From IMG/VR virus record IMGVR_UViG_3300022752_000016: a DNA stretch of 64,000 bases; one strand, 5' to 3'. Origin of the DNA: a virus. Taxonomy: Duplodnaviria; Caudoviricetes. A program made the translations under genes and the position numbers. Within the stretch, counting starts at the first letter, position 1. Each line of letters begins with the position of its first letter. The notes under the pieces are model-generated. The model was not told the origin of the DNA, searched no databases, and saw only the letters and a program-made list of their open reading frames with translations. Below, piece by piece: positions 998 through 63,678 of the stretch.

Positions 998-2448
998 AAA
1001 AATGTAAAATAATCATCAAGGATGAAGTCAATGCTAAGATACAGGATCTTGAATTAGACACACGGAAATTGCTTGTAAAAAAATTTGAGTTTGAAGTACC
1101 AGGTGCAAGATTTCTTCCTAGTGTAAAACTAGGGCGTTGGAATGGCAAATCAAGTTATTTCAGTATATCAGGTGCTACATACATCAACTTGCTACAAGAC
1201 ATTTTGCCTGTACTTGACCAACATGGATACGATATTGATTTAGAGGATTTACGTACCTACTCAACTAATTTCAAATTTGGTCAAGTGTCCGACAACACGT
1301 TTGCCGATAGAAATTGGCCCAAAGGACATACACAAGAAGGCAACCCTATCGTATTACGTGACTATCAGGTAGAAATTATAAACAACTTTTTACAGAATCC
1401 ACAGGCATTGCAAGAAGTAGCGACCGGGGCAGGCAAAACAATTATGACTGCTGCCTTAAGTAAAACAGTAGAACAATATGGCAGGTCTATTGTTATTGTA
1501 CCCAATAAAAGTTTAGTTACACAAACCGAAGAAGATTACATTAACATGGGATTAGATGCAGGTGTATACTTTGGTGATCGTAAAGAGTTTGGGAAACAGC
1601 ATACCATATGTACTTGGCAAAGCTTAAACAACCTACTTAAAGACACTAAAAATGGAAATGCAGATATTACTATTGCTGAATTTTTAGAAGATGTAATTTG
1701 TGTGATTGTTGATGAGGTGCATATGGCAAAAGCTGATGCCCTAAAACAATTGTTGACTAGTGTGATGAGTCATATTCCTATAAGATGGGGGTTGACAGGT
1801 ACAGTACCAAAAGCAGACCATGATAGATTAAGCATAGTTGTAAGTTTGGGACCTGTTATTAATAAATTAGCAGCTGCCGAGTTACAAGAAAAAGGTGTGT
1901 TGGCACGATGCCATGTTAATATCGTGCAGTTTAAGGATGATGTAGAGTTTAAAAACTACCAAAGTGAATTAAAATATCTATTAGAAAATGAAAAACGATT
2001 AGACACCATAGCAAATTTAGTAAATAAAATAAGTGAATCTGGAAATACATTGGTGTTGGTGGATAGGGTATTACCAGGCAAACAGTTAGTAGAGAAAATT
2101 ACTGACAGTGTGTTTATCAGTGGCGAAACCAAACTTGTAGAAAGGAAAGAAGAATATGACCAAGTGGCGACGGCATCAAATAAAGTTATTGTTGCCACCT
2201 ACGGTGTGGCAGCAGTTGGGATCAATATTCCTCGCATTTTTAATTTGGTTCTTATTGAGCCTGGCAAGTCCTTTGTACGTGTTATACAAAGTATTGGAAG
2301 AGGCATACGTAAAGCGGAAGATAAAGACTTTGTACAAATTTGGGACGTAACCAGTAATTGTAAGTTTAGCAAACGTCATTTAACACAACGTAAAACATTT
2401 TACAATGAAGCCAATTATCCTTTCTCATTGGAAAAATTAAGCTATTGA
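994..2448 (+). CDS. uvsW: Superfamily 2 DNA helicase, UvsW-like
   Basis: Q-motif LRDYQ, Walker A ATGAGKT, DEVH box, motif III GLTGT, ATYGVAAVGINIP and motif VI QSIGRGIR. Confidence 0.88.
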   Translation: MKKCKIIIKDEVNAKIQDLELDTRKLLVKKFEFEVPGARFLPSVKLGRWNGKSSYFSISGATYINLLQDILPVLDQHGYDIDLEDLRTYSTNFKFGQVSDNTFADRNWPKGHTQEGNPIVLRDYQVEIINNFLQNPQALQEVATGAGKTIMTAALSKTVEQYGRSIVIVPNKSLVTQTEEDYINMGLDAGVYFGDRKEFGKQHTICTWQSLNNLLKDTKNGNADITIAEFLEDVICVIVDEVHMAKADALKQLLTSVMSHIPIRWGLTGTVPKADHDRLSIVVSLGPVINKLAAAELQEKGVLARCHVNIVQFKDDVEFKNYQSELKYLLENEKRLDTIANLVNKISESGNTLVLVDRVLPGKQLVEKITDSVFISGETKLVERKEEYDQVATASNKVIVATYGVAAVGINIPRIFNLVLIEPGKSFVRVIQSIGRGIRKAEDKDFVQIWDVTSNCKFSKRHLTQRKTFYNEANYPFSLEKLSY

Positions 2449-2473
2449 CAAACATATACAAACATGTTAATAT
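2445..2473 (+). promoter_or_regulatory. sigma70-type promoter with extended -10; ATG 6 nt downstream
   Basis: TTGACA (2445-50), 17-nt spacer, TG-n-TAATAT (2465-73), then 6 nt to the ATG at 2480. Confidence 0.7.
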
Positions 2474-2479
2474 AATACT

Positions 2480-2980
2480 ATGAGAATACTATTACTTGAT
2501 GACAACAGTTACAACCTAGAAACATTACCAGAAGAAATTGATGACTTACGATTTGCGATATTAGATAATAGCAACCCAAATAATGTTGATTATTACTTTA
2601 TTCCATTAGTATTTTTGGAATCGTTTAACAGTCCTGCATTAGTTCTACAGATTGGTGATCGTACTATAAAAATGCCCGTTGATTGGCAAATATTAATTGG
2701 AGAAAAAGATCATGGTGACTTAGAAACATTACCATTGTCAAGTTTAAATGATCGTGGATTCAGCGCATTTCAATTTAACCCAATAAGCAGTTTTAGCCCA
2801 GGTTTCTTGCCTGTAGAAATCATTGACATTTACAATGATGTTACTTGGTATGCACCTAGGCTACGTAATGGGCAATTTTTAAGCGTACCTATTGAAGATG
2901 GGCCTAAACCCCGATGTATATATTTTGTAAAAGAAATAAGCAGAAATTGTGAAATTGTAGATTATAGTCAAGTGTTTTAA
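2480..2980 (+). CDS. Conserved hypothetical protein, possibly a degenerate Hint-fold
   Basis: Clean 166-aa ORF. The hydrophobic pattern follows intein blocks A/B/F, but catalytic residues are absent (see findings). Confidence 0.6.
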   Translation: MRILLLDDNSYNLETLPEEIDDLRFAILDNSNPNNVDYYFIPLVFLESFNSPALVLQIGDRTIKMPVDWQILIGEKDHGDLETLPLSSLNDRGFSAFQFNPISSFSPGFLPVEIIDIYNDVTWYAPRLRNGQFLSVPIEDGPKPRCIYFVKEISRNCEIVDYSQVF

Positions 2981-3561
2981 TGAAAAAAACAATACCAACT
3001 GATGAAAAGTTAGAGAAACAAGACTTTGACTTGTTTGAAGCTGTTACTGCCATAGATAAAAAAGACTATGGTTATTACGATAGATTGAATGAAGAACAAA
3101 AGAAAAAGTTTGTGCCCTTTATGTTGTTACATTGGATCAGTGCGGTAAAAGGTAATAGAGATTTACAAGGGTATTATTTAATGAGTACCGAGCATCATGC
3201 AAACAAATATCTTTTTAATGAGAACATACAAAAGAACCCAAAATTACAATGGTTGATGCTATGTGCAAGTAGTCCAGGTATTGGAAAACAATTCCATCAA
3301 TATATTCCGCATATTAAAGATCGTGTTGCAAAACTACGTGATATAGCAAAACAAAAAGATATAGAGGAATATTTCAAAAAAATCTACAAAACAGATGATA
3401 ATACGTTAAAAGAAATGTCTGAGTTATATGTACAAAATCAAAAACGTAAGGTTTATTTGGCTAACAAATTTCCTCATCTAAAAATAGATGATATTGATTT
3501 ATTAAATGAACTAATTACAGACAATGAAATAGAGCAGTATGAGCGAGACAGTGGAAATTAA
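2980..3561 (+). CDS. Putative clamp-loader small subunit (T4 gp62-like)
   Basis: KKFVPFMLLHWIS...ANKYLF...KLQWLML resembles the gp62 pattern (xSPFMxNRxLS...MN...QYxxL). It lies in the replication operon, and a gp44-like partner is at 59023. Confidence 0.45.
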   Translation: MKKTIPTDEKLEKQDFDLFEAVTAIDKKDYGYYDRLNEEQKKKFVPFMLLHWISAVKGNRDLQGYYLMSTEHHANKYLFNENIQKNPKLQWLMLCASSPGIGKQFHQYIPHIKDRVAKLRDIAKQKDIEEYFKKIYKTDDNTLKEMSELYVQNQKRKVYLANKFPHLKIDDIDLLNELITDNEIEQYERDSGN

Positions 3562-4231
3562 ATTCGGGTGTGAATTTTGTAATCGTACTTTTTTACGTGA
3601 AAGTACGATTGCCAAACATATCTGTGAATATAAACATCGTTGGCAAGAAAAAGATAAACGAGGTAACCAAATTGGTTTTCAGGGTTGGCTACATTTTTAC
3701 AAAAGAAATACTGCTACAACAAAACAAAGAACCTATTTAGACTTTATTAAAAGCAGTTATTATATTGCATTCGCTAAGTTTGGTAACTATTGCGTTGACG
3801 TAAACGTAATTAATGTACAACGGTATATAGATTGGCTACTAAAAAATAAAATACGTATTGATGTTTGGAACCACGATACCAATTACAGTAAATTTTTAAT
3901 TGAATATTTGCGTAATGAAGATCCATTAGATGCAATACATCGTAGTGTAGAATCTACTATTCTACTAGCAAGTGAAGAAAGGGTATTGCCTAAGGATATA
4001 TTAAGATATGGTAATAAAAATAAAATATGTTATCATGTTACTACAGGAAAGATTAGTCCATGGATGTTATACCAATGTGACAGCGGACTAAAGTTTATAG
4101 ATAGTTTAGATGAATCACAAGTAAAAATGATTATTAACTATATTGATCCTGAAAAATGGGCTATAAAATTTAAAAGAAATTCTGATATTGTAACATCAGT
4201 AAAGGAAATTTTAAATGCAGGGCAGTACTAA
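3539..4231 (+). CDS. Zinc-finger protein, function unknown
   Basis: N-terminal CEFC-x12-H-I-C finger; overlaps both neighbouring genes. Confidence 0.7.
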   Translation: MSETVEIKFGCEFCNRTFLRESTIAKHICEYKHRWQEKDKRGNQIGFQGWLHFYKRNTATTKQRTYLDFIKSSYYIAFAKFGNYCVDVNVINVQRYIDWLLKNKIRIDVWNHDTNYSKFLIEYLRNEDPLDAIHRSVESTILLASEERVLPKDILRYGNKNKICYHVTTGKISPWMLYQCDSGLKFIDSLDESQVKMIINYIDPEKWAIKFKRNSDIVTSVKEILNAGQY

Positions 4232-4427
4232 TAATTTTCCACATACTATAAGATTACATTGGAGACTAGGTGACAAAATAGAAGATTGGGATACTAAGTG
4301 TATTTGGGTAATAGAAACATTTGGCAAACCTGGAGTTAATTATATTACCCACGCAACTGATGATTTTATGGATTTTATGTTTAAATACGAAAAGGATGCT
4401 ATATTTTTTTCGTTAAAATGTTTATAG
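4215..4427 (+). CDS. Small paralogue 1 (W-x3-4-FG...F-x-L-x-W-like family)
   Basis: WVIETFG...FMFKYEKDAIFFSLKC; overlaps its neighbours. Confidence 0.7.
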   Translation: MQGSTNNFPHTIRLHWRLGDKIEDWDTKCIWVIETFGKPGVNYITHATDDFMDFMFKYEKDAIFFSLKCL

Positions 4428-4618
4428 AAAAAGCTAGAGTAAGATTAATTAATCATAATCAATTTACTGAGATAATATTATGGTGTACACAATTTATTGG
4501 CGAAGAAAACACAAACTGGTATTGGACATACGTAAATGATAGTGTATTTGATTCAATGATTGATTTTGTTTTTAGTAAAGAAGAATATGCCAATTTATTT
4601 GCATTAAGATGGCTATGA
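4418..4618 (+). CDS. Small paralogue 2
   Basis: WCTQFIG...W...FVFSKEEYANLFALRW. Confidence 0.7.
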   Translation: MFIEKARVRLINHNQFTEIILWCTQFIGEENTNWYWTYVNDSVFDSMIDFVFSKEEYANLFALRWL

Positions 4619-4866
4619 TGCTACATTACTTTGATTTTAGACGAGGGTTCGACAATGATAAACCAAATTGGTTTATTTGCAACATTGAAAACTACAATAA
4701 TGACATGTTTGAATTTATGGATAGATGTGAGACAATGATAGATTGGGTATATAGTGAGTTAGATATGCCTGAACGTCATTGTCGTTGGACTTGTCACAGT
4801 AATAATTTTACAATAAAGTTTAGATATTTACATCATTTGAATTGGTTTAATTTACGTTGGAAATAA
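4609..4866 (+). CDS. Small paralogue 3
   Basis: DWVYSEL...RW...IKFRYLHHLNWFNLRW. Confidence 0.7.
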   Translation: MAMMLHYFDFRRGFDNDKPNWFICNIENYNNDMFEFMDRCETMIDWVYSELDMPERHCRWTCHSNNFTIKFRYLHHLNWFNLRWK

Positions 4867-5178
4867 ATGAAAAATTTTAAGATAATTAAGTTAGATAAAC
4901 GTTTTAAAGGATATGGTCACTTTAAATACGGTGTGACCACTAATTTCGAGTATACATTCTGTGAAATGCGTGAATGGTGTTGGACTACATTTGGACCAAG
5001 CAAAGAAATTGGGTATTGGCTAGATGATACAGACTTTAGAATTCATTATATGGCTAAACCAAAAACTATAGTACATCATAATGAACATTGGTCTTGGCAC
5101 AGTGAAGATTTAAATTTTAATAAGATTTTTTTACGATCAGAAAAAGAACTTGTATTGTTTAAGCTAAGGTTTGAATAA
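4867..5178 (+). CDS. Small paralogue 4
   Basis: EWCWTTFGP...WSW...IFLRSEKELVLFKLRF. Confidence 0.7.
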   Translation: MKNFKIIKLDKRFKGYGHFKYGVTTNFEYTFCEMREWCWTTFGPSKEIGYWLDDTDFRIHYMAKPKTIVHHNEHWSWHSEDLNFNKIFLRSEKELVLFKLRFE

Positions 5179-5396
5179 TGGTTGATACTTCTTTTAAAAC
5201 AAGAAAAGGCACAGGATATACCTACGATTGCAAAGGTAGAAAAGAAAATCCAACACATATTGTTAAATGGTGTAGAAATAATTTCGGTGAGCGTGGTAAA
5301 GGTTGGGACTTTTACACGGTACAAGGGAATGTCCATATTGAAATTTGGGATAGCAAATATAAAATGATGTATGAACTTTGGAAATATAATGTATAA
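5178..5396 (+). CDS. Small paralogue 5
   Basis: KWCRNNFGE...WDF...IEIWDSKYKMMYELW. Confidence 0.65.
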   Translation: MVDTSFKTRKGTGYTYDCKGRKENPTHIVKWCRNNFGERGKGWDFYTVQGNVHIEIWDSKYKMMYELWKYNV

Positions 5397-5952
5397 TCAT
5401 GTAATGATTGATATGGAAACGTTAAGCACAGATCCAAACTGTGTAATATTAACAATAGGTGCTGTAAAATTTAATCCAAGGAGTACAGGTGTAATTAAAA
5501 AATTAGAATTAAGACCTACTGTTGATGAACAAATTGAAATTCATAATAGGACAATTAACGATGATACTTTACGCTGGTGGTCTGAGCAAAGCCCTGAAGC
5601 ACTTGAAGAAGCATTGGGAGACAGGGGAAGGCAATCATTTAAAGAGTGCATGGATATACTTTACAAGTTTTGTTGGAACTGTGATGCTGTTTGGAGCAAT
5701 GGTGCATCATTTGATATTGTTGTTGCTGAAACCGCATTTAGGCAAACTCTCATTGATCGCCCTAATCCTATTCCTTGGCCTTTTTATGCTATTAGAGATA
5801 CTAGGACTTTATACGAAATTGCGGGAGTCAAACTTAAAGATGGAGGTTACGTTACCACACACAAAGCAGTAGAAGATGCAGAACGTCAAGCAATTGTTGT
5901 ACAACAAGCGTATACTAAGTTAATTAAAGCAGGATTGTATGCGAATAAGTAG
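5389..5952 (+). CDS. DEDDh 3'-5' exonuclease (Rv2179c/DnaQ-like)
   Basis: Exo I MIDMET, Exo II WSNGASFD, RDTRT and Exo III H-KAVED. The ATG at 5389 overlaps the upstream stop and is preferred over 5371. Confidence 0.85.
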   Translation: MYNHVMIDMETLSTDPNCVILTIGAVKFNPRSTGVIKKLELRPTVDEQIEIHNRTINDDTLRWWSEQSPEALEEALGDRGRQSFKECMDILYKFCWNCDAVWSNGASFDIVVAETAFRQTLIDRPNPIPWPFYAIRDTRTLYEIAGVKLKDGGYVTTHKAVEDAERQAIVVQQAYTKLIKAGLYANK

Positions 5953-6523
5953 TGATATTGATATTGATTTGGCAGATCGTGAGTCACTATTAAAATTAAT
6001 AGAACATATTCCTGCATCAATAAGAAAAAACAATACAGTAAAAAAACATCCAACTGGTGTTTATGTAACAGATATACCATATGATCCAATTAACAACATG
6101 TCAGCATTGGATTATGAAATAGCAGAAAATAGAGGATATTTTAAACTTGATTTTTTAAATGTACATGTATATGGAAAAATTAAAGATGAGCAACATTTAA
6201 TAAACTTAATGTGCGAACCTAATTGGACAAATTTGTATAAAAAAGATTTTGTTGAAAAATTAATACATATTAATAATCAATTTGACATATTATTAAAAAT
6301 GCCAGAGCCTATCGATAGTATACCTAAATTAGCTATGTTTTTGGCAATTATTCGACCTGGTAAACGACATTTAATTGGTAAAACATTTGATGTAATTGAA
6401 AAAAGTGTTTGGGATAAAGTAGATGATAGTTATTATTTCAAAAAAAGTCATAGTTACAGTTATGCACAATTAGTTGTTGTGCATATGAATTTGCTTGATG
6501 AATCAAATAACTTTTTTAACTAG
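5939..6523 (+). CDS. dnaE: DNA polymerase III alpha (C-family) catalytic fragment, minimal C-terminal half
   Basis: DIDID, KHPTGVYV, GYFKLDFL, LAIIRPG and YYFKKSHSYSYA match DnaE DFDVD, KHAGGVVI, GLVKFDFL, VALFRPG and YGFNKSHSAAYA in order. Confidence 0.85.
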   Translation: MRISSDIDIDLADRESLLKLIEHIPASIRKNNTVKKHPTGVYVTDIPYDPINNMSALDYEIAENRGYFKLDFLNVHVYGKIKDEQHLINLMCEPNWTNLYKKDFVEKLIHINNQFDILLKMPEPIDSIPKLAMFLAIIRPGKRHLIGKTFDVIEKSVWDKVDDSYYFKKSHSYSYAQLVVVHMNLLDESNNFFN

Positions 6524-7760: not shown

Positions 7761-7789
7761 TTGTAATTAAGTCATATTTTTGTTAATAT
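7761..7789 (+). promoter_or_regulatory. sigma70-type promoter with extended -10; ATG 6 nt downstream
   Basis: TTGTAA, 17-nt spacer, TG-n-TAATAT (7781-89), then 6 nt to the primase ATG at 7796. Confidence 0.65.
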
Positions 7790-7795
7790 TTTCAG

Positions 7796-8767
7796 ATGTT
7801 TGACATATTATCCTTTATTCCAAGTAAAAAAACGTTAAGTCAAAGTGGCTGGCATAGTTTTAATGCAATATGTTGTCAATATCGTGGACATAGACAAGAT
7901 ACTCGAAAACGCGGAGGCATACGTTTAGCTAATAACAGTTGGCAATATCATTGTTTTAATTGTGGATTTAAAGCTGGTTTCTTTCTAGGTAAAAGCATAA
8001 CAAAAAATGCAAGACAGCTATTTAAATGGTTAAACATTGATGAGCAACAAATAAATCGTTGGAATCTAGAGAGTATACAACATCGAGATTTATTAGAAAT
8101 AATAAAAGTTCGTAAAGAAAATAAAAAAATAAAGTTTAAAGATTATAAAATAGAAGATGGAGAAATTTTAGATATTAAAAATAGTCAACACAAAAAGTAC
8201 ATAGAATATTTAAATAAAAGAGGATTGAAGCATGATTGCTATCCTTTTTTGGTAACTCCAAATTTAATTGGAAGAAAGGCAAATAGAATAATAATTCCTT
8301 TTACCTTTGAAGGAAAAATTGTAGGACAAACGTCAAGATTTTTAGATGATAAAAAACCTAAGTTTATTAATGATCAACAACCTGGTTATGTATTTGGTTA
8401 TGATTTACAAAAACCAAATTGGGAAATTTGTATTTTGTGCGAAGGTATTTTTGACGCATTAAGTATTGACGGGTGTGCCATAACACATAATGTTATAAAT
8501 AATGACCAAGTCGAAATAATTAGTAGATTAAATAGACGAATTATATTTGTTCCAGATCAAGATAAAACAGGATTATCTCTTTGTGATCAAGCACTTGAAT
8601 TAGGATATGAGGTAAGTATACCTGAATGGGATAATAATATCAAAGATATAAATGATGCAGTGGTAAGTTATGGTAAATTTAGTACTTTGCTAAGTATTAT
8701 ACAGGCATCGACAAATAATAAAATAAAAGTTGAGATGAGGAGAAAGGCTATTGCTAAAAGATTATAA
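7796..8767 (+). CDS. dnaG: DNA primase (zinc-binding + TOPRIM; gp61/DnaG-like)
   Basis: N-terminal CC...YHCFNCG zinc module, TOPRIM CEGIFD, PDQD and KDIND; adjacent to DnaB. Confidence 0.88.
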   Translation: MFDILSFIPSKKTLSQSGWHSFNAICCQYRGHRQDTRKRGGIRLANNSWQYHCFNCGFKAGFFLGKSITKNARQLFKWLNIDEQQINRWNLESIQHRDLLEIIKVRKENKKIKFKDYKIEDGEILDIKNSQHKKYIEYLNKRGLKHDCYPFLVTPNLIGRKANRIIIPFTFEGKIVGQTSRFLDDKKPKFINDQQPGYVFGYDLQKPNWEICILCEGIFDALSIDGCAITHNVINNDQVEIISRLNRRIIFVPDQDKTGLSLCDQALELGYEVSIPEWDNNIKDINDAVVSYGKFSTLLSIIQASTNNKIKVEMRRKAIAKRL

Positions 8768-10157
8768 TAATGATGTGCAATTGTTATTTTTGCGTATGAT
8801 GGTAACTAATTCAGAATTATATACAAGAATTATGAATATAATGAATGTAAAAAACTTTAATAAAAATTTGTTGCCTGTAGCAGAATTTATAGTTGAGCAT
8901 AGTAAAAAGTATAATGTAATGCCTGAATCAATACAAATAAAGGCTACTACAGGTATTGAAGTAGAAGTTATACAAGATTTAGATGAAGGACATTATGAAT
9001 GGTTTCTTGAGGAATTTGAAGCATTTACTAAAAGACAAGAACTAGAACGAGCTATCTTAAAAAGTGCTGACCTATTAGAGAAAGGAGAATACGATCCTGT
9101 AGAAAAACTAATTAAAGATGCTGTGCAGATTAGTTTACAGCGTGATATGGGTACAGATTATTTTGCTGACCCAAAAGCTAGATTAATGGCATTAAAATCA
9201 AATAACGGACAAAACAGCACAGGTTGGCCTAGTATGGATCAAAAACTATATGGTGGCTTTAATCGTGGTGAATTACAAATCTTTGCAGGTGGTAGTGGAT
9301 CTGGTAAATCGTTGTTTATGCAAAATCTTGCGGTGAATTGGGCACAAGCAGGACTGTCAGGAGTATATATTACATTAGAACTTAGTGAAGGTTTATGTAG
9401 TATGCGTATTGATAGTATGATGACGGATACAAGTAGCCGTGAAATTTTCAAAGACATTGATAATGTTGAGATGAAGGTTAAAATGGCAGCTAGGAAAGCA
9501 GGAAAATTGCGTATTAAATATATGCCTGCACAATCTACTGTAAATGATATTCGTGCTTATTGTAAAGAATTACAAATACAAACAGGCATAAAGATTGACT
9601 TTTTGTGTGTAGATTACTTAGACTTATTAATGCCCGTCAGTGCTAAGGTTAGCCCTAGTGATTTATTTGTCAAAGACAAATATGTTAGTGAAGAATTACG
9701 TAATTTAAGTAAAGAATTAAATGTATTATTTGTAACTGCAAGTCAACTAAATCGTACAGCGGTAGATGAGATTGAATTTGATCATAGTCATATAAGCGGT
9801 GGTATTAGTAAAATCAACACAGCAGATAATGTATTTGGTATTTTCACAAGTCGTAGTATGAGAGAGCGTGGTCAATATCAGTTACAATTAATGAAAACTA
9901 GGAGTAGCAGTGGTGTAGGACAAAAAATTGAATTAGATTTTAACATTGAAACATTAAGGATAACTGATAGTAATGAAGAAGTAAAACAATATTCACAACC
10001 AAGTCCAACTGAAATTTTAAATAAAATTCGTCCAAACAATACAGTTAATGACGTTATACAGAACACTGTACAGCCTCAAACAGGCAAAGTTGTTGCGGAT
10101 GTTCAGAGTAGCAAACTAAAGTCTTTGTTAAATAGTTTACAGAAACAAAATCAATAA
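8751..10157 (+). CDS. dnaB: Replicative DnaB/gp41-like helicase
   Basis: Walker A GGSGSGKS, ITLELSE, VDYLDL, TASQLNR and QLMKTR; TTG start. Confidence 0.92.
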   Translation: MLKDYNNDVQLLFLRMMVTNSELYTRIMNIMNVKNFNKNLLPVAEFIVEHSKKYNVMPESIQIKATTGIEVEVIQDLDEGHYEWFLEEFEAFTKRQELERAILKSADLLEKGEYDPVEKLIKDAVQISLQRDMGTDYFADPKARLMALKSNNGQNSTGWPSMDQKLYGGFNRGELQIFAGGSGSGKSLFMQNLAVNWAQAGLSGVYITLELSEGLCSMRIDSMMTDTSSREIFKDIDNVEMKVKMAARKAGKLRIKYMPAQSTVNDIRAYCKELQIQTGIKIDFLCVDYLDLLMPVSAKVSPSDLFVKDKYVSEELRNLSKELNVLFVTASQLNRTAVDEIEFDHSHISGGISKINTADNVFGIFTSRSMRERGQYQLQLMKTRSSSGVGQKIELDFNIETLRITDSNEEVKQYSQPSPTEILNKIRPNNTVNDVIQNTVQPQTGKVVADVQSSKLKSLLNSLQKQNQ

Positions 10158-13342: not shown

Positions 13343-13358
13343 ATTGCTTAAATACGAA

Positions 13359-13799
13359 ATGTCACATAAAATTAAATGTTATACTTTGTTTGATATTACA
13401 CAAACAGATATACGACAAAGATCACGTATACCAGAAGGAATAGATTTAGTGAAATATGTATATCAAAGAAATACTCAAAATAATTTAGATACAATATTAC
13501 AAATTATTTCACTTAGATCCCAACCAGAGTTAGTTCAAAGCCCTAAAACATTAAAAATTAATTTAAATGATTCAGATTGGTTTGGTTTTTTATATATGGA
13601 TGAACAAGTAAATGTATGGTCTTTTGAATTTGAGGTTCATCATTCAAATGTCTTTAATGATGGTTACGAAGAATTTGGATATTTATATAGGGATTGTGAT
13701 GGTATTCCAATGATTAAATGTGAAACAGAATATAATCAATTAACCAATTTTTTAGATATAAACCCTGAAACAAAAAATATACATTTTATATTATGTTAA
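13359..13799 (+). CDS. Conserved hypothetical protein
   Basis: ATG at 13359 lies 4 nt after TTAAATA; the listed start at 13344 is less likely. Confidence 0.65.
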   Translation: MSHKIKCYTLFDITQTDIRQRSRIPEGIDLVKYVYQRNTQNNLDTILQIISLRSQPELVQSPKTLKINLNDSDWFGFLYMDEQVNVWSFEFEVHHSNVFNDGYEEFGYLYRDCDGIPMIKCETEYNQLTNFLDINPETKNIHFILC

Positions 13800-16332: not shown

Positions 16333-16362
16333 ATAAATAGTTATATTAAATTTAATTAAATA
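16333..16362 (+). promoter_or_regulatory. Tandem late-promoter motifs
   Basis: ATAAATA 16333-39 and TTAAATA 16356-62, the latter 5 nt from the ATG at 16368; no SD. Confidence 0.5.
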
Positions 16363-16367
16363 CATCT

Positions 16368-19300
16368 ATGGCTATTATTCAAATTTCCAAAATTCAACAA
16401 CGTACAGGTAATCTTATCGATTTACCTCAGTTAGATGAAGCTGAGTTCGGTTGGGCAAGTGATGAAAAAAAGTTATTTATAGGAAAAACCACTCCCAATG
16501 AAAACATTGAAATACTGACTTCGTATTCTACTGTAAATTTTGATGCTATTGCAGGAAGTTATGGAAATTTAAATATAAACCCGAACACTGTTGGTAATGG
16601 ACAAATTTTAACCTTTAATGGTGTAAATTGGGTAAATAGAGGTGGAAATGCAGGGGGAATAATAAATTTAGGTGATGTAGCTAATTTAAAAATATTAGGT
16701 GGCGGTATAGGCTACATCTTAGAAACTGACGGAACAGGAAATCTTTCATGGACTCCTAAAGGAACATTGATTGCTTTTATTGAAAATGCAACTCCAAGTA
16801 AAGTTCCTTTAAATCAAACTGTAGCCACAACTTCTTATGCATCAAATGGTAATATATTAATAGCCAATACATCAGGTTATTTGCAAGATACACCTATTGT
16901 GTTTACTGGAACAGGATTTGGTAACATTTCTACAAATACATTGTATTACGTAAATTCAGTAAGTTCTGGGGATAGTACAATAAAAATTACAGATGTATTA
17001 GGCGGAAGTGCAATAAGTTTAACTGACGCCAATGGTAATCTAGGCTTAAACATTGTAGGCACCATTGTCACTACAGTAGCAAATAATTTTTTTACTCAAG
17101 GTACGGAAATAACTGTAACCGATGCTGCTGGAATGGTACAGCTTAATGGAAATACATTTTTTATAGATGTAATTACAGCTAACACGTTTGCACTTTATAC
17201 TAACCCAGCACTTACGGATCCTGTTTATTCTAATAATTATAATAGTTATGCATACACAAGTGTTACTGCAACTGACTCAGCAACTAGCACTATTACAGTA
17301 GGAAATTCTTCTGAATTTACCTTGAATGCGCCTGTTATGTTTAAAGGAGATTTGGGAAATAGTGACCTGATTGATGGAGAAACTTATTATGTTAACAATA
17401 TTGTTTCAGGAACAGAAATTAAAGTAAGTAGTTTTTTATTTCCAAATGGCATTGCAGGTAATACGTTCCCTGTAGATACAGATTTAACAATTTTTAATAG
17501 TATTGTATTTCAACAAGGTGGTAGAATAATTTCCTCGATAGGTGGTTCAACTAGTACACAAGCATCTGGATCAAATACTACAATACAATTTAATAATAAT
17601 AATATTTTAGACGGTGACCCTGATTTTACTTTTGATTTTGGTACTACACCAAAACTGGTTACATTAAATGGTAATGCAAATGTCGGTAATCTTGTCGCAA
17701 ACGGTATAGTAAGTGGAACGCAATTAATTTCAAACATTCCAACTTTATCAGGACCTCCGTTAATAGTGACCTCTACTCTAAGAGTAAGTAATTTAAACGT
17801 AAACTATGCTAATGTAAGTGATTTCAGTAATGTAGTGTCTGAAACAACAGGAAATACATACTTAATACTTGCAAATAATAGTACAAGTGGTAATTACCAA
17901 TTAAGATCAAATTCTAATTTAAGTTTTAATGTAAGTACAGGTAACTTAATTGCCTCAATATTAACAGCTACAGGAAATATTAATGGTAATAATTTAATAA
18001 TTTCTAATCAGTCAACAACTGGTAATTTAATCGTTACAGGTAATTTATCATCTAATAATTGGGCAGCTAATGGTATAGCCTTTAGAACGACACCTCAAAC
18101 TTACACAGATTCTAACACTCCAGGTAATGCTATATTGTCTAGTACACATATAAGTGCTTTGTCTGCAAGTAATATTGATACAGCTAATGGCAATGTCACA
18201 ATAAGTAATGCTGCAACTTTGTATATTGCAGGTGCACCTTCTAACGCTAGTACAAATCTTACCATAACAAATACATATGCCTTGATGATAAATTCTGGTA
18301 ATGTTTTGATAGCAGGAAATGCAAATATAGGAAATATTTTAACAAATGTTGCCAACATTACAACTATCAATAGTGGTTTATTACAGAACGGTAATAGTAA
18401 TGTAACTATTGCAGCCAACGGAAATATTACACTAAATGCCAATGGTGGCGCAAGAATAATAGCTACCTCTACTGGTGCGAATGTATCGGGTACATTGGCA
18501 GTTTCTGGTAACGCAAATACCGCAAATTTAGGAACAACAAACTTATTTGCTAATAATTTATCATTATCAGGTACATCAAATGGTAACATAAATGTTGCTA
18601 CCATAGCTAATTCATTAGGTTTCAGAATAATCCCATCAACATATACAGATAATTTATCTGCACCATCATCTAATGTAAATGTTGCTGCCATTCATGCTAT
18701 AGGAAGACCAACTGTAACAGCTTCAAATACAGCTATTACAGCAAATAATTTAGCAACCTTTTATATAGAAAATGCTCCTAATGCAAGTACTAATATGGCT
18801 ATAACTAGTCCATGGGCCTTATACATTGCTAACGGAAATAGTTTCTTCGGACAAGGTATAATGTTTGGAGATGGAAGTGGTATAGGGAACGTAAGAACAA
18901 TTTCATTTGGAACCAGTAATGTAAGAGTTTATCAAAATGCAAATGTTGAGGTAAGTATAAATGGCATTTCAAATTTAGCTACATTCTTTTCTACTGGATT
19001 TAAGGTAGCAGGAACAATTGAAACTACTAATGGTAATATTCAAGCAAATGGCAACATAATTGCTAATGGAAATATTTCTGGCGGCAATGCATTTTTTACA
19101 GGTAATGCAAACGCAGCCTTAGTTGGAACAGCACAAATAACATCTCCAACAGGAAATTTAACAATCAGTGCATCAGGAAGTAATCAATCAATATTTTTAG
19201 TTCCTTCAGGTACAGGCACGGTAGACGTTGCAGGTAAAAGATTATCCCAAATTGGTTCAGTCATAAATCCAAATGACGCTACAAACAAGGAATATGTTGA

Positions 19301-29609: not shown

Positions 29610-31328
29610 TTAAGGTTTAGGTGGTAAATCAGGAAAAGGTAAATCAAGTATAGAAGATAAAGGTTGTGCACTAGGAATATAAGTTTGTGTTTGTTGGGTA
29701 AATATAACTTCTTTGTTATTTATAAAAGATGAACGTAAAGATTTATCTTCATCTGTAAATCCTGTTTCAGTACGAACTTTTTTAGAAATTCTAACCCAAA
29801 TTTTACCGTCCCATCTATATAAAATTTGCGGTAAATAATCAATTCGTAAAAAATAATCACCTACCTGAGGATTTTTAGGAAAACTTATGCCTGCACCTGA
29901 AGGTAACCCGTTAGGTGGTAGTCCTGTACCAGTCATATACCCTATGGCATAACCATAACTTCTAGGAGTAGCCCTCGCAATATATTGAAATCTAGGATCA
30001 GCGTCCGCACGATAATCCATTTGCTGGGTAACTGTTCCAGTAAATCCTGGTTCTACGGGGTTTTGATCGGCTGTAGCATAAGTATTGTCTGCTGTACCAT
30101 AAGGTCCAGTTACTGGTCCCATTGAACGCACCACTAGTACTTTTTCTCCAGAGACTTGTCCTGAACCAGTATCTAGTTTTTCTAAAGCTACTGTTTGAAC
30201 TTCTAAACTTGTCTGTACAAACTTATCTAGCTTATCCGCTAAATGATCCATGTCTACAGTCATGTCCCAAAAATTGCTTAATTCGGCATTGTTTAGTTTA
30301 ATCACAGGACTTGCATTTTTATATTTAGGATTTCTAACCATAGCAACTGTACCTGTTACAGTTGTAATAGGTGGCCCATTATTTGTATTAACATTAATAG
30401 GAGGAGCAGGCTGCCCAACTTTATGTGAAAGAACATTATTTTCTTCGTATTCACCATAAGTTGGCAAAACATAAAGTCGAGAATCATCATATCCCGCTAA
30501 AGGTAAAATACGTTTTGCTTCATCAAGGACAGCATTATTAATTTCAATGTTTTTATTATAGGTAGCAAGTATATCTTTAAGGTCTTCTGCTGTATCGATT
30601 TCCCAATATGTACTATTTGGCGGAGTTATACCTGCAGGTACTTCAATTTTAGATTTATAATTTTTATTACCAAAACTTACAACATATCCTGCAGGATAAA
30701 CTTTTGTATTATCGTAAATTCCTAAATAGGTATCATTATTAATTGGTTCTTGAAGTATTTGACTAAATTCCTGACTATCAATTAAAGGTTCACATTTAAT
30801 GCGCCAAAGATGTGGATACCATGTTTGACTGAAACCTTCACTCGCAAAGTTTGAATCAGTAATTTGATAAAATCTTTTAAGTGCAACTGGAATAGTTTCA
30901 GGCAACGGATTGTAATCAAGCAAATGTGGGAGTTCTAAAACATCTCCTACCATAAGTTTTCTACCAATTATATCAATCATATCATTATAATGTACAGTTA
31001 CAAATATTATGTCATTATTTAAAAATAAACCGAATTGACTTAAATCAAAATCAAGATTTTGTACATTATAATGACCACGCAACCTATATATGTTTGGATC
31101 GTAACTACGGTCTCTATTTTCTAAAAATAATAGGTCCTGAATATTATTAGGGTTAAGATTACTGTACTCAGGTAAGGTATAATCTTCGCTAGCACCTTGA
31201 TTAGTTGGCCCTAAATACTTGTGAATGTATAAATCAGTGCCACCAACCGTAAGCATCTCCGATATTGTCTTATCGAAAAACCTGTAGTCATTTTGTTTAT
31301 TTGGTCTATAAAGAGATAATTTTGGCAT
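29610..31328 (-). CDS. gp14: Neck protein (T4 gp14-like) with inserted aromatic carbohydrate-binding-like module
   Basis: GGTDLYIHKY, IQDLLFLENRDR, FGLFL, GDVLELP; insertion YDNTKVYPAG...STYWE. Confidence 0.6.
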   Translation of the reverse strand: MPKLSLYRPNKQNDYRFFDKTISEMLTVGGTDLYIHKYLGPTNQGASEDYTLPEYSNLNPNNIQDLLFLENRDRSYDPNIYRLRGHYNVQNLDFDLSQFGLFLNNDIIFVTVHYNDMIDIIGRKLMVGDVLELPHLLDYNPLPETIPVALKRFYQITDSNFASEGFSQTWYPHLWRIKCEPLIDSQEFSQILQEPINNDTYLGIYDNTKVYPAGYVVSFGNKNYKSKIEVPAGITPPNSTYWEIDTAEDLKDILATYNKNIEINNAVLDEAKRILPLAGYDDSRLYVLPTYGEYEENNVLSHKVGQPAPPINVNTNNGPPITTVTGTVAMVRNPKYKNASPVIKLNNAELSNFWDMTVDMDHLADKLDKFVQTSLEVQTVALEKLDTGSGQVSGEKVLVVRSMGPVTGPYGTADNTYATADQNPVEPGFTGTVTQQMDYRADADPRFQYIARATPRSYGYAIGYMTGTGLPPNGLPSGAGISFPKNPQVGDYFLRIDYLPQILYRWDGKIWVRISKKVRTETGFTDEDKSLRSSFINNKEVIFTQQTQTYIPSAQPLSSILDLPFPDLPPKP

Positions 31329-31332
31329 ATAG

Positions 31333-31339
31333 TATTTAT
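31333..31339 (-). promoter_or_regulatory. Late promoter ATAAATA, 4 nt from the gp14-like ATG
   Basis: The reverse strand reads gATAAATActatATG; no SD. Confidence 0.6.
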
Positions 31340-31349
31340 CGGATCAGGC

Positions 31350-31378
31350 TTGACAATAAATGGGCTTTATCGTATAAT
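31350..31378 (+). promoter_or_regulatory. Perfect-consensus sigma70 promoter
   Basis: TTGACA (31350-55), 17 nt, TATAAT (31373-78). Confidence 0.88.
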
Positions 31379-31407
31379 AGTAAATACTGTAAATTTTGGA
31401 GAATTAC

Positions 31408-32637
31408 ATGGCACGAAAGGCAAAAGCAGCACCAGTCGAACCTAAACAAAAGACAATTAAAAAGGTCACAAAGTCAGCGACTTCGTTAGTACTAATAAAA
31501 TCACTTGATCCTAAAGATCCTGATACCAAATATTTCGGTAATGAACCTGAATTTACTGTACAACCTGAAAATCGTTTTACAGCATTGGCAAAAGCTTTTA
31601 CTTGGTACAATAGATTTTATACAAGAAAAGATGCTAAGGAAGCACTTGCACAATATCTAGACCAAAGTGACAGGGCAGTAGATGCGAAGATTATTAGGAA
31701 AGTAGATGACAATGAATTGATTCCCACTATTTGTTGGTTGAGTCGAATGAAATTACGTGGCTTAGAACTAAACGAACAGGAACAAGCTACATTGGACAAA
31801 GAAATTTCACGTTTAATAAAGGCTGTTCATAAGCCTGAATTAAGAATTTCAGCTACTGGTAAAAATTCAATTTTTAAAAAAGAATCTCTTAAACCAAATG
31901 TTCAAGATATCATGCGTCAACGTACCCGAGAGGCAGGTGGTGAACTAGAGGGTTTGTTTGATGATTTTATTACTGAAGGTGCAAGTGCTAAGTTTGCTAT
32001 AAAAGTAATAGATGAGGTTCAAAGAAAAAACATACTACCACAGCATATTTCCATACTTACTGAAGTATGGAAGAAAAAACAAGACGAGTTTACAACTTTG
32101 CTTAAAGGTAAAGATGGCCAATTAAATGAAGGCTATAGACATTTAACTAAAGTACAAATTAAAAATATTATCAAGTTTATTGAACAAGTCATTAGTGACC
32201 TTAACAGCTATGTTAGTGTAAAAAAGGCTGCTAAGACTCCTAGGGCACGTAAGGCAATTCCTGTAGAAAAGCAAGTTGCTAAATTAAAATTTTTAAAAGA
32301 ATACAAAGACCCTGCAATAAAACTAGACTTATTAAGTTTACATCCAGTAAAATTGCATGGAGCAACTGAGGCTTGGGTGTATGATACAGCAAAACGTAAA
32401 TTACATCATTATGTAGCAGATGAATATAGTAAAACATTTAGTGTAAAGGGCAATACATTATTGGGCTTTTGTTCCAAACAAAGTGAAGTTAAAACTTTAC
32501 GTAAACCTGCTGAACAAATTAAAGAAATTGTAGGTAGCAAGCCTGCCGCTAGAAAGTATTTTAAAGAAATTAAAGCAGTTAGTATTACTCCAAATGGAAG
32601 ATTTAATGAAGCAATGGTAATTCTTAAAGCTTTTTGA
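31408..32637 (+). CDS. Conserved basic hypothetical protein, probably early
   Basis: SD GGAG before the ATG at 31408; Lys-rich; consensus sigma70 promoter. Confidence 0.7.
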   Translation: MARKAKAAPVEPKQKTIKKVTKSATSLVLIKSLDPKDPDTKYFGNEPEFTVQPENRFTALAKAFTWYNRFYTRKDAKEALAQYLDQSDRAVDAKIIRKVDDNELIPTICWLSRMKLRGLELNEQEQATLDKEISRLIKAVHKPELRISATGKNSIFKKESLKPNVQDIMRQRTREAGGELEGLFDDFITEGASAKFAIKVIDEVQRKNILPQHISILTEVWKKKQDEFTTLLKGKDGQLNEGYRHLTKVQIKNIIKFIEQVISDLNSYVSVKKAAKTPRARKAIPVEKQVAKLKFLKEYKDPAIKLDLLSLHPVKLHGATEAWVYDTAKRKLHHYVADEYSKTFSVKGNTLLGFCSKQSEVKTLRKPAEQIKEIVGSKPAARKYFKEIKAVSITPNGRFNEAMVILKAF

Positions 32638-33469: not shown

Positions 33470-33497
33470 TTGACTTTTTTCTGTAATATATTACACT
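33470..33497 (+). promoter_or_regulatory. Possible sigma70 promoter for dNMP kinase
   Basis: TTGACT, 16 nt, TACACT; SD GAGGGG. Confidence 0.45.
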
Positions 33498-33518
33498 AAT
33501 ATAAAAGAGGGGTTACTA

Positions 33519-34151
33519 ATGATTATTGGTGTTACTGGTCTTATCGGTAGTGGCAAAGATACTGTAGCAGATTATCTTTGCACGTTTCATGGGTTCAAAC
33601 GATTGAGTTTCGCAGCAAGTTTAAAGGATGCTATTTGTAGCGTATTTGGTTGGGATCGTGAAATGATAGAAGGAACAACAAAAACAAGTCGTGAATGGCG
33701 TGAAAAAGTTGATACATGGTGGGCAGAAAGATTAAATATGCCTCAACTTACTCCAAGATGGGTAATGCAATATTGGGGCACTGAAGTATGCAGAGAAGGA
33801 TTTCATCCTGACATTTGGGTAGCAAGCGTAGAGAATAAGTTAAGAAGTACAAAAGATAATATTGTGATTACTGATTGTAGGTTTATAAATGAAGTTACTG
33901 CAATTAAGAATGCAGGCGGTATTACTTGTAGAATAGAAAGAGGTAAGCGTCCTGATTGGTATGAATATGCAGAACAATACAATCTTGGGCCTTCGAAAAT
34001 AGGTTGGGCACTTGGGAAAAGTGAGCTTGTTAAACGTGGCATACATGCCAGTGAATATAGCAGCGTGGGGTTACACTATGATTTTACTATTGACAACAAC
34101 GGCTCAATTGATGACTTACATGAAAAAATAAAGTCAATAATCAACCTGTAA
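33519..34151 (+). CDS. gp1: Deoxynucleoside monophosphate kinase (T4 gp1-like)
   Basis: IIGVTGLIGSGKDT, FAASLKD, PRWVMQYWGTE, ITDCRF. Confidence 0.9.
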   Translation: MIIGVTGLIGSGKDTVADYLCTFHGFKRLSFAASLKDAICSVFGWDREMIEGTTKTSREWREKVDTWWAERLNMPQLTPRWVMQYWGTEVCREGFHPDIWVASVENKLRSTKDNIVITDCRFINEVTAIKNAGGITCRIERGKRPDWYEYAEQYNLGPSKIGWALGKSELVKRGIHASEYSSVGLHYDFTIDNNGSIDDLHEKIKSIINL

Positions 34152-34481
34152 GTCTCCTTTTATCCATGTTACATTTCTTTTTTTAACTACCTCTACACAG
34201 TTTAAACAAATTGAACGCAAGTTTATAAATTCAACATTTTTTAAATTACCATCTATATGGTATACAATAATTTGTGTAGCATAGCTTGCTTTAAAACCAC
34301 ATAAATCACATGTGGTTTTCTTTTTATATCCAGCTTTATCCCAGTTATATAGTCTGGGTTTAAGCTTTAATTTTTTTCTACCACAAGAATCACAAATAGA
34401 CCGAAAATGCTTAATTTGATTTTTAATATAATTAATAGCACAATAATTTTTATTGCAAGTTTTACATATAGGTCTTTTCAT
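34134..34481 (-). CDS. Zinc-binding HNH-like endonuclease
   Basis: CxxC pairs plus HIDGNLKN...NLRSICLNC; TATAAATA (34494-87) lies 5 nt upstream. Confidence 0.7.
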   Translation of the reverse strand: MKRPICKTCNKNYCAINYIKNQIKHFRSICDSCGRKKLKLKPRLYNWDKAGYKKKTTCDLCGFKASYATQIIVYHIDGNLKNVEFINLRSICLNCVEVVKKRNVTWIKGDLQVDY

Positions 34482-34541
34482 TGTATTATTTATAAAAAAA
34501 CCTTCGAAGGCATAATGTAAGTGCTTTTTTTAACCTTTTAG

Positions 34542-55819: not shown

Positions 55820-56376
55820 CTACTAGAATAGAAAAAAATTGGAATTTTAATGCAGGCGTACATTTTTCAGATAAATTGTTGTTAAATAATTATATCATAA
55901 CATTGTCTATGGTAGTTGAAACGGAACAGGTACGTGAACAAAATATTGCAATGGAAAGGTTACATTATTTTATAAATGAAGTCCTAGATAATAGTATTTT
56001 TTTTGATCTAAATGATAAAAAAATAGAAGCTTTTAAAAATCTAAATTTAAAAATATGTTCGCTTCCTGAAGAACCATTTGATCAAATAATTGGAATCATT
56101 TTACTAATGAAATTTAATTCTATTCTTGAAAACAAATTAGTAGTCACAGATTTGTTTATAGAATCAAAACTAGGAGATTATGTTAAGTTTCATATTGTTC
56201 AAGAAATAGCCGAAAGTTTTTTTACAGGAAATAATTGGTGGAATAATGCATCCGCAAATATTTCAAATAATGAAAAAAATTCGGGAAAAAAAACTAAAAT
56301 AGTTAAATTATTTGATGATGATTGGTTAGGTTTAGGTTTGTCTTGGAAAGATCCTAAAGTTTGCCAAAAAAGTTGA
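55816..56376 (+). CDS. Hypothetical protein, possibly a degenerate QueD/PTPS T-fold
   Basis: FNAGVH...NNYIITLSM...EVLDNSIF...EEPFDQII resembles QueD strand spacing, without the His/Cys ligands. Confidence 0.35.
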   Translation: MTTRIEKNWNFNAGVHFSDKLLLNNYIITLSMVVETEQVREQNIAMERLHYFINEVLDNSIFFDLNDKKIEAFKNLNLKICSLPEEPFDQIIGIILLMKFNSILENKLVVTDLFIESKLGDYVKFHIVQEIAESFFTGNNWWNNASANISNNEKNSGKKTKIVKLFDDDWLGLGLSWKDPKVCQKS

Positions 56377-56400
56377 CTTATATATAAACTATGTTAAAAT
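56373..56400 (+). promoter_or_regulatory. sigma70-type promoter with extended -10; ATG 6 nt downstream
   Basis: TTGACT (56373-78), 16 nt, TG-n-TAAAAT (56392-400), then 6 nt to the ATG at 56407. Confidence 0.7.
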
Positions 56401-56406: not shown

Positions 56407-56916
56407 ATGAAGGTAGATAAATATGGTCAAGTTATACTAAATGAAGAGGACTTGTGTGAAGTATTATATACAAATCCAAACCATACTTTTGTAAAAGTTT
56501 TTACAGAAACTTTAATAAAAATTCCTAATTTCGTACATACTGGTAGTTTTATACCTTCTATAAATAACGATAATACAATAGAAGAATTTGATTATAAATT
56601 ACAAAAAAATTATTATATACCAGAAAAATATAAAAATTTTGATATTAAAAACCATATCAAAAATTTATGTAACAACAATTTAGAATTACATAGGGTAGAA
56701 TTAGAATTAAAGTTGTTTGAAAAATATGATATGATTAATTTGTTAATTTATTTAAAATACTTAGTAGATATTACAAAACTTCACAATATTGTTTTGGGTG
56801 TAGGCAGAGGCAGTAGTGTTGCTAGTTTTGTATTATACTTGCTAGGAATTCATAAAATAAATTCATTAAAATATAATTTATCAATAAATGAATTTTTTAA
56901 AGGAGAAAATTTATGA
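56407..56916 (+). CDS. dnaE: DNA polymerase III alpha (C-family) N-terminal palm fragment
   Basis: RVELELKLF...LIYLKYLVD...GVGRGSSVASFVLYLLGIHKINSLKYNLSINEFF matches DnaE RLETELQVI...[34 protein letters not shown]. Confidence 0.85.
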   Translation: MKVDKYGQVILNEEDLCEVLYTNPNHTFVKVFTETLIKIPNFVHTGSFIPSINNDNTIEEFDYKLQKNYYIPEKYKNFDIKNHIKNLCNNNLELHRVELELKLFEKYDMINLLIYLKYLVDITKLHNIVLGVGRGSSVASFVLYLLGIHKINSLKYNLSINEFFKGENL

Positions 56917-57296
56917 AGGTTAAAACTGCACAAGGAAAAACTTTGGATATGGGTGCACTAATCGCTAAAAATGAAAAAGCCAGAGCCGTAGGAAACATGA
57001 AGGTTAATGCAAGAGGAGATACAATTGATTCACATAATAATATTATCAAATCTGTAAATGAAAAAACAGCTAGTGGATATGCAAAAACAGTTGGAAATAA
57101 ATCAGGCCAAATTGTTCGTCAAACTCCTTTAAGTAATAATCAAAGTACTATGCACACCATTAATCAACTGCCTGTAAAACCAATTAATGATGAAGAACAA
57201 AATTTATTACAAGATTTACAAGAATTTATAGAGGATGATAAAGACCTTAAAAAAGAAACAAATGAAAAGGAAAAAAATGATAGTAAGGAAATTTAA
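56913..57296 (+). CDS. Hypothetical protein
   Basis: SD AGGAG; conserved-looking N-terminus RAVGNMKVNARGD. Confidence 0.65.
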   Translation: MKVKTAQGKTLDMGALIAKNEKARAVGNMKVNARGDTIDSHNNIIKSVNEKTASGYAKTVGNKSGQIVRQTPLSNNQSTMHTINQLPVKPINDEEQNLLQDLQEFIEDDKDLKKETNEKEKNDSKEI

Positions 57297-57624
57297 AAAA
57301 ATCCTACCACTTTATGATTCAGTAATTGTAAGTGATATGATGTTTGAAGAAAGAGTCAGTCAAGGAGGTATAATAATTCCAAATGATGATATGAAAGATT
57401 CTGGAATAAGACCAAGATGGGCAAAAGTCTATGCTATAGGTCCTGATCAAAAAGACATAAAGGTCGGGCAATATATTTTAATAAGTCATGGTCGTTGGAC
57501 TAGAGGTATTAAAATTGATGATGGTGATAGTATAAAAACTATCCGTAAAGTGGATAACAATGATATATTAATGGTGAGTGATGAACCTGTACATGATCAA
57601 ACAATGAGTGACAAGGTAGTTTAA
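57277..57624 (+). CDS. groES: Co-chaperonin GroES
   Basis: ILPLYDSVIV, mobile loop SQGGIIIP, VYAIGP...IKVGQ, C-terminal NDIL; ATG at 57277. Confidence 0.85.
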   Translation: MIVRKFKKILPLYDSVIVSDMMFEERVSQGGIIIPNDDMKDSGIRPRWAKVYAIGPDQKDIKVGQYILISHGRWTRGIKIDDGDSIKTIRKVDNNDILMVSDEPVHDQTMSDKVV

Positions 57625-61884: not shown

Positions 61885-61992
61885 CAGTATTTACATTGTT
61901 AGATATGTAAAAGATTATACAGTTAAAACACTTTTATTTCAGATAAATAATAGGTTAAGGTTTAATCTTATTTATGATTTGATAAATACTTT

Positions 61993-63669: not shown

Positions 63670-63678
63670 TGTTATACT
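63670..63678 (+). promoter_or_regulatory. Extended -10 element TG-n-TATACT, 5 nt before the dnaJ ATG
   Basis: Same geometry as the promoters at 2465, 7781 and 56392; no clear -35. Confidence 0.5.

Follow-up and report, generated by a model that had tools for sequence, protein, structure and literature searches.

Genes whose messages begin directly with the start codon are known from a few phages and from many bacteria, and they are probably new for the group of giant phages considered here. The closest precedent is phiYS40, a large Thermus thermophilus phage transcribed by the host RNA polymerase, for which many leaderless genes are reported (Sevostyanova et al. 2007, J Mol Biol 366:420, as cited in PMC3594737 and PMC4842269). 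We analyzed a 64-kb stretch of viral DNA, IMGVR_UViG_3300022752_000016 (hereafter the window, on which all positions are numbered), in which promoter elements stand immediately before the ATG codons of several genes, and we propose that the first cistrons of these units are probably made from leaderless mRNAs via host-type promoters. The window would share with phiYS40 both the leaderless genes and the use of host RNA polymerase. In phiYS40, however, the leaderless genes belong to the middle/late class and accompany a reported shift in initiation factors IF2 and IF3, whereas the promoters described below have a clear -35 element at 17 nucleotides (nt) and are joined by a second class with T4-type late boxes; phiYS40 also belongs to another lineage than these PA5oct/Rak2-like phages and differs from them in host phylum and habitat.

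Among bacteria, differential RNA sequencing (dRNA-seq) of the alphaproteobacterium Bradyrhizobium japonicum placed 192 start sites exactly on start codons behind a TGnTA extended -10, and the same paper, with reference to the phiYS40 study, points to leaderless phage genes that have a motif of this kind (PMC4842269). For Deinococcus-Thermus, promoters with the -10 element next to open reading frames (ORFs) have been described (PMC12340547), and the mapped 5' ends of Lactococcus cremoris fall into two leader-length classes with a gap between them (PMC10986495). Our system resembles these bacterial cases in its fixed, short distance from -10 to start, in the lack of a Shine-Dalgarno (SD) sequence and in its two leader classes, and resembles B. 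japonicum in the TGnTA motif; they are cellular genomes with mapped 5' ends, whereas ours is a phage clade studied by sequence comparison alone. Shean and Gottesman are said to have reported in 1992 that the lambda cI message from PRM is leaderless, with a 5'-terminal AUG. That message is likewise a phage transcript beginning with AUG and made by the host sigma-70 polymerase, but cI is a single regulatory gene of a temperate phage, whereas here the design would recur in the first cistrons of early and late units.

Among giant phages, PA5oct has 32 sigma-70-type promoters (TTGAC / TATAATA) and relies on the host polymerase, its transcription being rifampicin-sensitive; the paper does not mention leaderless transcripts (PMC7318152). 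The window shares with PA5oct the promoter type and the position of promoters before two genes treated below, one for a 166-residue protein and one for DNA primase, whereas the consensus promoters of PA5oct mostly have leaders of 20-40 nt with an SD. phiKZ, in which no leaderless transcript was detected (PMC8244752), and AR9, whose 5' untranslated regions span 26-491 nt (PMC5312081), are mapped giant phages that use their own polymerases, and the present clade would be the opposite case. We found no description of this design for PA5oct/Rak2-like giant phages in the searchable literature. The window has a G+C content of 30-36% along its DNA, carries nearly all of its genes on the plus strand, and yielded no DNA-level match to a cultured phage. 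The nearest counterparts of its DnaB-like helicase and of one virion protein come from the giant phages PA5oct, Atu_ph07, Phosso and XaC1; the clade consists of freshwater giant phages that have PA5oct, Atu_ph07 and Rak2 as relatives.

Four genes of the window have an extended -10 element 5 or 6 nt before their ATG:

2445-2473, plus strand: site 1 promoter, with -35 TTGACA (2445-2450), a 17-nt spacer and extended -10 TGT-TAATAT (2465-2473)
2480-2980, plus strand: site 1 gene, encoding a 166-residue protein (phrog_11279), with its ATG at 2480, 6 nt (aatact) after the -10
7761-7789, plus strand: site 2 promoter, with a weak -35 TTGTAA (7761-7766), a 17-nt spacer and TGT-TAATAT (7781-7789)
7796-8767, plus strand: site 2 gene, encoding DNA primase (Toprim/DNAG_N matches), with its ATG at 7796, 6 nt (tttcag) after the -10
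56373-56400, plus strand: site 3 promoter, with -35 TTGACT (56373-56378), a 16-nt spacer and TGT-TAAAAT (56392-56400)
56407-56916, plus strand: site 3 gene, encoding a 169-residue DNA polymerase III alpha fragment (DNA_pol3_alpha, phrog_11127; hereafter the DnaE fragment), 6 nt (tgttct) after the -10
63670-63678, plus strand: site 4 -10, TGT-TATACT, 5 nt (aggta) before the dnaJ ATG at 63684, without a credible -35
63684-63998, plus strand: site 4 gene, encoding a DnaJ-domain protein and extending past the end of the window

The original prediction had named these four arrangements, the first three with -35 boxes TTGACA, TTGTAA and TTGACT and no SD, and all of this is found in the sequence, at gaps of 6, 6, 6 and 5 nt. 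The positions it assigned to the ATG codons (2465, 7781, 56392 and 63670) are instead the first bases of the TGT-extended -10 motifs, and the true ATGs lie at 2480, 7796, 56407 and 63684. TGT directly precedes the -10 hexamer at all four sites, as in an extended -10, and a -35 element lies at 17 ± 1 nt at the first three (spacers of 17, 17 and 16 nt), with none at dnaJ. The duplex energies with the anti-SD are +1.5, +1.5, +1.5 and -1.8 kcal/mol at sites 1 to 4, which amounts to no SD; the SD-led genes of the same window give -4 to -9.4 kcal/mol. The gene upstream of site 1 (encoding a UvsW-like helicase) and the one upstream of site 3 both end in a TGA that forms part of the -35 hexamer, TTGACA and TTGACT respectively, and the entire gap of about 30 nt is therefore promoter and nothing else. 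The gene after the primase, which encodes the DnaB-like helicase (8751-10157), has a strong SD.

The distance between promoter and start codon is conserved in relatives of the 166-residue protein, of which IMG/VR holds more than 590; identity over the best aligned segment is 81-98% for the top 80. We compared 62 distinct upstream regions from viral contigs, whose proteins are 77-100% identical, and found the end of the -10 at 6 nt from the start in 54 of them, at 5 nt in four and at 7 nt in one. Of 60 regions, 59 have a 17-nt spacer to a TTGAC-type -35 and 49 have TG before the hexamer. The interval between -10 and ATG holds 26 different 6-nt sequences, and 60 of the 62 genes start with ATG. 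A second set, taken from metagenome contigs, gave a 6-nt gap in 60 of 68 distinct upstream regions (40 new) and an ATG in 66 of 68.

Coding starts at the ATG at 2480, because synonymous variation is seen from codon 2 onward, PA5oct gp267 aligns with the protein from residue 1, and in-frame stops lie immediately upstream, among them a TAA (2468-2470) within the -10 of site 1. The homologues in PA5oct, 121Q, XbC2, Atu_ph07 and Phosso start at the homologous codon and have their own SD upstream. PA5oct carries at the homologous position (L001 4240-4320) the promoter TTGACA-16-TGC-TATAAT, followed by 26 nt that include the SD aaaggtg and by a TTG start. The orthologues of Phosso, Atu_ph07, 121Q and XbC2 (L212-L215) have no adjacent promoter and lie inside an operon, with an SD behind the upstream gene. 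Among these three orthologue versions, as far as the sequences compared go, the promoter abutting the ATG is specific to the freshwater clade. The protein itself, which had been labelled Hint-like, matches nothing in Pfam or the PDB and belongs only to phrog_11279, a family of unknown function, so that the label finds no footing; an AlphaFold2 model from a shallow 13-sequence alignment was unusable (mean predicted local distance difference test score, pLDDT, of 44).

The same geometry recurs at other genes. Across 25 distinct upstream regions of the primase (54-100% protein identity), 18 have the -10 at 6 nt, four at 7 nt and one at 5 nt; TGnTAnnnT followed by 5-7 nt and a start codon is kept in 23 of 25 with unrelated intervening bases, ATG being the start in 23 and TG preceding the hexamer in 22. 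The DnaE fragment has the 6-nt gap in three of three cases, down to 42% identity. Its two relatives with a full-length match read TTGACA-17-TATCAT-6-ATG (L021, 49% identical) and TTGACG-17-TAAAAT-6-ATG (L022, 42%); in more distant relatives the gene overlaps the upstream gene instead. The dnaJ gene, which has no -35 in the window, is preceded in L021 by TTGACA-17-TGTTACACT-6-ATG. A gene for a 345-residue protein of unknown function, which starts 42 nt to the left of the window, has CTTGCA-17-TGATACAAT-6-ATG in L037 (96% identical to the window), and the same layout at 5-6 nt is present in 15 of 15 relatives, L037 included. Of 53 cases of the control, the UvsW-like helicase gene of the same loci, no more than 3 have a -10 at 6 nt.

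At the helicase gene of the window, TGTTAATAT (982-996) lies 3 nt before the ATG (994), within the end of the upstream gene. Two relatives, L044 and L097, carry a proper promoter, TTG..-TGATAGAAT-6-ATG, before their helicase gene. Judging from the loci compared, this junction seems to be one at which promoters come and go.

For promoters with a TTGA -35, a TAnnnT hexamer and a spacer of 16-18 nt between them, we recorded how far the -10 lies from the first ATG that opens an ORF of 80 codons or more in 1.28 Mb of related loci. The histogram of these distances has a mode at 6 nt: 73 cases lie at 6 nt, 6 at 5 nt and 4 at 7 nt (83 in total), one case falls at 9-16 nt, and a second mode holds 65 cases at 29-36 nt, counts that are not phylogenetically independent and in which the families used to fetch the loci are over-represented. 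The mean anti-SD energy is -0.3 kcal/mol in the short class versus -5.4 kcal/mol in the long class, and the TG extension is present in 71% versus 32%. In the short class, the ATG follows a pyrimidine in 56 of 83 cases and a G in no more than 3, in line with the common preference for a pyrimidine-purine start. Two promoters of the window illustrate the contrast:

31350-31410, plus strand: TTGACA-17-TATAAT without TG extension, 29 nt to the ATG at 31408, with GGAG 6 nt before the ATG
33470-33521, plus strand: TTGACT-16-TACACT without TG, 21 nt to the ATG at 33519 (deoxynucleoside monophosphate kinase), with SD agagggg

The comparisons support the view that selection holds the -10-to-ATG spacing of several gene families at 6 nt, with rare cases of 5 or 7, over a varying intervening sequence. 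Fixed spacing, the lack of an SD, a near-exclusive use of ATG and membership of the short mode together are the accepted sequence signature of leaderless genes.

T4 late promoters have the form TATAAATA and are gp55-dependent. As in T4, an NTAAATA box precedes late genes of the window, at a fixed 18 nt from SD-led starts: six genes have the box at exactly 18 nt and all of them have an SD, the SD-led late-box set lying at 6943, 10163, 32651, 41319, 44388, 53229 and 59946. Unlike in T4, five genes have the box 4-5 nt from the ATG, none of them with an SD, an arrangement confirmed in relatives for one:

31326-31339, minus strand: ATAAATA (31333-31339), 4 nt to the ATG (31326-31328) of a 572-residue virion structural protein; no SD
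61982-61995, plus strand: ATAAATA, 4 nt to the ATG at 61993 of a virion structural protein (phrog_12928); no SD
16356-16370, plus strand: TTAAATA, 5 nt to the ATG at 16368 of a 1655-residue protein with head-decoration/tail-fibre-like parts; no SD
13348-13361, plus strand: TTAAATA, 4 nt to the ATG at 13359 of a 146-residue protein with no family match; no SD
34479-34493, minus strand: ATAAATA (34487-34493), 5 nt to the ATG (34479-34481) of a 115-residue protein with no family match; no SD

Virion-protein family matches are thus found for three of the five short-distance genes, and the other two have no family match. Of 53 distinct upstream regions from relatives of the 572-residue virion gene, 48 have 4 or 5 nt between box and ATG, an interval filled by 18 different sequences. 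Since the late-box genes share the short spacing without an SD, the leaderless design would be a general second mode of expression in early and late units, standing beside the SD-led genes and not specific to replication. The original prediction had confined it to key replication genes, a limit that does not hold: the set also includes the conserved gene at 2480, the 345-residue gene, dnaJ and the five late-box genes, three of them with virion-family matches.

We infer both the position of the transcription start and the mode of translation from these comparisons. Putative sigma-70-type promoters, mostly TG-extended and suited to the host RNA polymerase, would be placed directly at gene starts. 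Host polymerase usually initiates about 7 nt past the last base of the -10, in agreement with the original prediction, which would therefore put +1 on the A of the ATG, or within one nucleotide of it. The message would begin with AUG, and the ribosome would recognize the 5'-terminal AUG together with initiator tRNA rather than rely on SD pairing, a mode to which the near-exclusive choice of ATG is suited. The same design may operate with T4-type late promoters, in the form NTAAATA, 4-5 nt, ATG. The likeliest reasons for such a layout would be efficient translation of leaderless mRNA in the host, a reduced translation rate fixed for low-copy proteins, or both.

The ten cistrons behind the 2480 gene (2980-6523) overlap or abut, at gaps of 0 to -26 nt. 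In nine of them the SD is weak or absent (above -5 kcal/mol), and the unit as a whole appears to do without SD pairing, translation probably passing along it by re-initiation or coupling. A more far-reaching version, which we regard as tentative and rather doubtful, would have SD-independent entry into whole units throughout a widespread freshwater clade: a leaderless first cistron, behind a host-type or a late promoter, would be followed by overlapping SD-less cistrons served by a single 5'-loaded ribosome. Such units would have evolved from SD-led ancestors (the same gene being SD-led in 121Q, XbC2, Atu_ph07 and Phosso and leadered in PA5oct), owing to a high-capacity host, perhaps a streamlined alphaproteobacterium, or to a phage-altered initiation machinery.

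The PA5oct genome offers further sites of comparison. Its primase gene reads TGC-TATAAT, 6 nt, GTG, in frame with the annotated GTG, which touches the -10 (record 145878-145892; L001 7947-7961); either the annotated start may be wrong, or this may be a GTG-leaderless case. At about 12831, 65629 and 248668 (L117, L120 and L129), a consensus TTGAC-17-TATAAT/TATACT promoter is followed by an ATG exactly 6 nt after the -10. These three ATGs open only mini-ORFs of 3-7 codons, and an SD-led gene follows in one case.

Several observations weigh against reading the first cistrons as leaderless. The capacity of the host for leaderless translation is an assumption. No terminator lies between the upstream genes and the promoters at the four sites, where the intergenic gaps are 31, 45, 30 and 15 nt, and read-through transcripts in which these ATGs are internal must also exist. 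None of the metagenome contigs starts at the ATG of the 166-residue gene; their ends are scattered 17-56 nt upstream and look random. At this gene the cultured relatives, by their sequences, are without the arrangement. The primase has a weak -35 (TTGTAA), dnaJ lacks that element and has a gap of 5 nt, and the GTG of the PA5oct primase is a poor leaderless start codon. Within the window, the bare pattern TGNTANNNT-N6-ATG has 5 matches versus 6.2 ± 2.4 in shuffles, and two scans for sigma-70-like consensus matches gave 82 versus 68 ± 9 and 59 versus 62 ± 8; none of these is enriched. Promoter-like hexamers are equally common in shuffled AT-rich DNA, and the window alone therefore proves little. 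For the bare pattern, the excess over AT-rich background expected under the original prediction is absent, and we dropped motif enrichment as an argument, pattern and consensus scans being no commoner than in shuffles. The structure of the 5' ends was likewise rejected as evidence: the first 40 nt are weakly folded (-0.5 to -2.7 kcal/mol), and the helicase control, which is not leaderless, behaves in the same way.

The lack of enrichment is what would be expected if four of the many -10-like motifs of AT-rich DNA had come to lie near ATGs by accident. Three of the five bare-pattern matches, however, are gene starts in short gaps without an SD. Over 69 gene starts, the motif stands at 6 nt three times, at 5 nt and 3 nt once each and at four other scattered spacings once each, where about 0.18 are expected per spacing (164 motifs per strand; Poisson P for at least three, ~8e-4). 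The spacing is moreover kept in more than 100 distinct upstream sequences from several gene families while the control gene is without it, and chance is effectively refuted. We also consider it unlikely that the promoters are real but that translation proceeds mostly from read-through mRNAs, with the A/U-rich -10 acting as an SD-independent ribosome landing site (S1-type/standby), or by re-initiation, and with the spacing due to an RNA role or to tight packing. The absence of terminators across the four short gaps agrees with this view, as do the many SD-less, overlapping cistrons downstream in the same units, which mean that ribosomes here must in any case be able to initiate internally without an SD. 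What is conserved, however, is a DNA promoter, with its TTGAC-type -35 at 17 nt in 59 of 60 regions and TG at -15/-14, parts that an RNA landing site does not need, and the near absence of distances of 9-16 nt fits a split into leaderless and leadered classes better than it fits packing.

It is highly improbable that the true starts lie downstream with their own ribosome-binding sites and that the AUG merely opens a short 5' untranslated region. The three PA5oct promoters whose +1 ATG opens only a mini-ORF, before an SD-led gene or a non-coding RNA, indicate that an ATG at +1 is not always a real gene start. Here, by contrast, the ATG opens a whole conserved ORF with codon-position variation from codon 2, and the homologues in the five cultured phages begin at the homologous codon behind their own SD. 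The original prediction had further proposed that leaderless replication genes escape a shut-off of SD-dependent translation via 70S or stress-modified ribosomes. In phiYS40, leaderless mRNAs of the middle/late class reportedly go together with an increase of IF2 and a decrease of IF3, and the same review tabulates IF1-3 as targets of T7 gp0.7 (PMC3594737). The phiYS40 case is a point in favour of such a scheme, which in the present phage is very unlikely: strong SDs precede its late genes and several early genes, so SD-led initiation must stay active and the phage is unlikely to disable it; the leaderless genes extend beyond replication functions; and no ribosome- or 16S-modifying gene and no translation-factor gene was seen in the 64-kb window. 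We found nothing that supports the escape from shut-off or the stress ribosomes. The leaderless reading itself is likely, being well supported by the spacing conserved in relatives, the lack of SDs, the ATG starts and the short-mode class, and it is not limited to replication genes.

Confirmation would make these abundant, uncultured giant phages of lakes the first case of systematic leaderless messages in the PA5oct/Rak2-like lineage. Gene callers built on SD models would then misplace starts in such genomes, and the primase start of PA5oct may be one example. The fixed -10-to-ATG distance would yield predictions of transcription starts at single-base resolution, testable in lake metatranscriptomes, and the occurrence of one orthologous gene in SD-led, leadered and leaderless form would represent a natural experiment on how phages adapt translation initiation to hosts.

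A hint, and no more, of an alphaproteobacterial host may come from a gene for a BI-1/YccA-like membrane protein (58334-59026; Bax1-I, 4e-52). Its best genomic relatives are mainly from Alphaproteobacteria, including many Pelagibacteraceae (38-48%); one 64% match lies on a 24-kb contig that is binned as Crocinitomicaceae but may be phage DNA placed in the wrong bin. This gene belongs to the unit behind the DnaE-fragment promoter, together with another host-like helper, Cpn10/GroES-like (57235-57624), and the two are followed by a clamp-loader ATPase. The dnaJ gene (63684-63998) lies further downstream, in a separate unit, and also has a late-type box, CTAAATA, 16 nt upstream of its ATG. The contrast promoter at 31350 drives an SD-led gene for a 409-residue protein (phrog_11903, unknown function). 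At 31329-31407, the minus-strand late box of the 572-residue virion gene and this plus-strand TTGACA-17-TATAAT promoter stand back to back, 10 nt apart.

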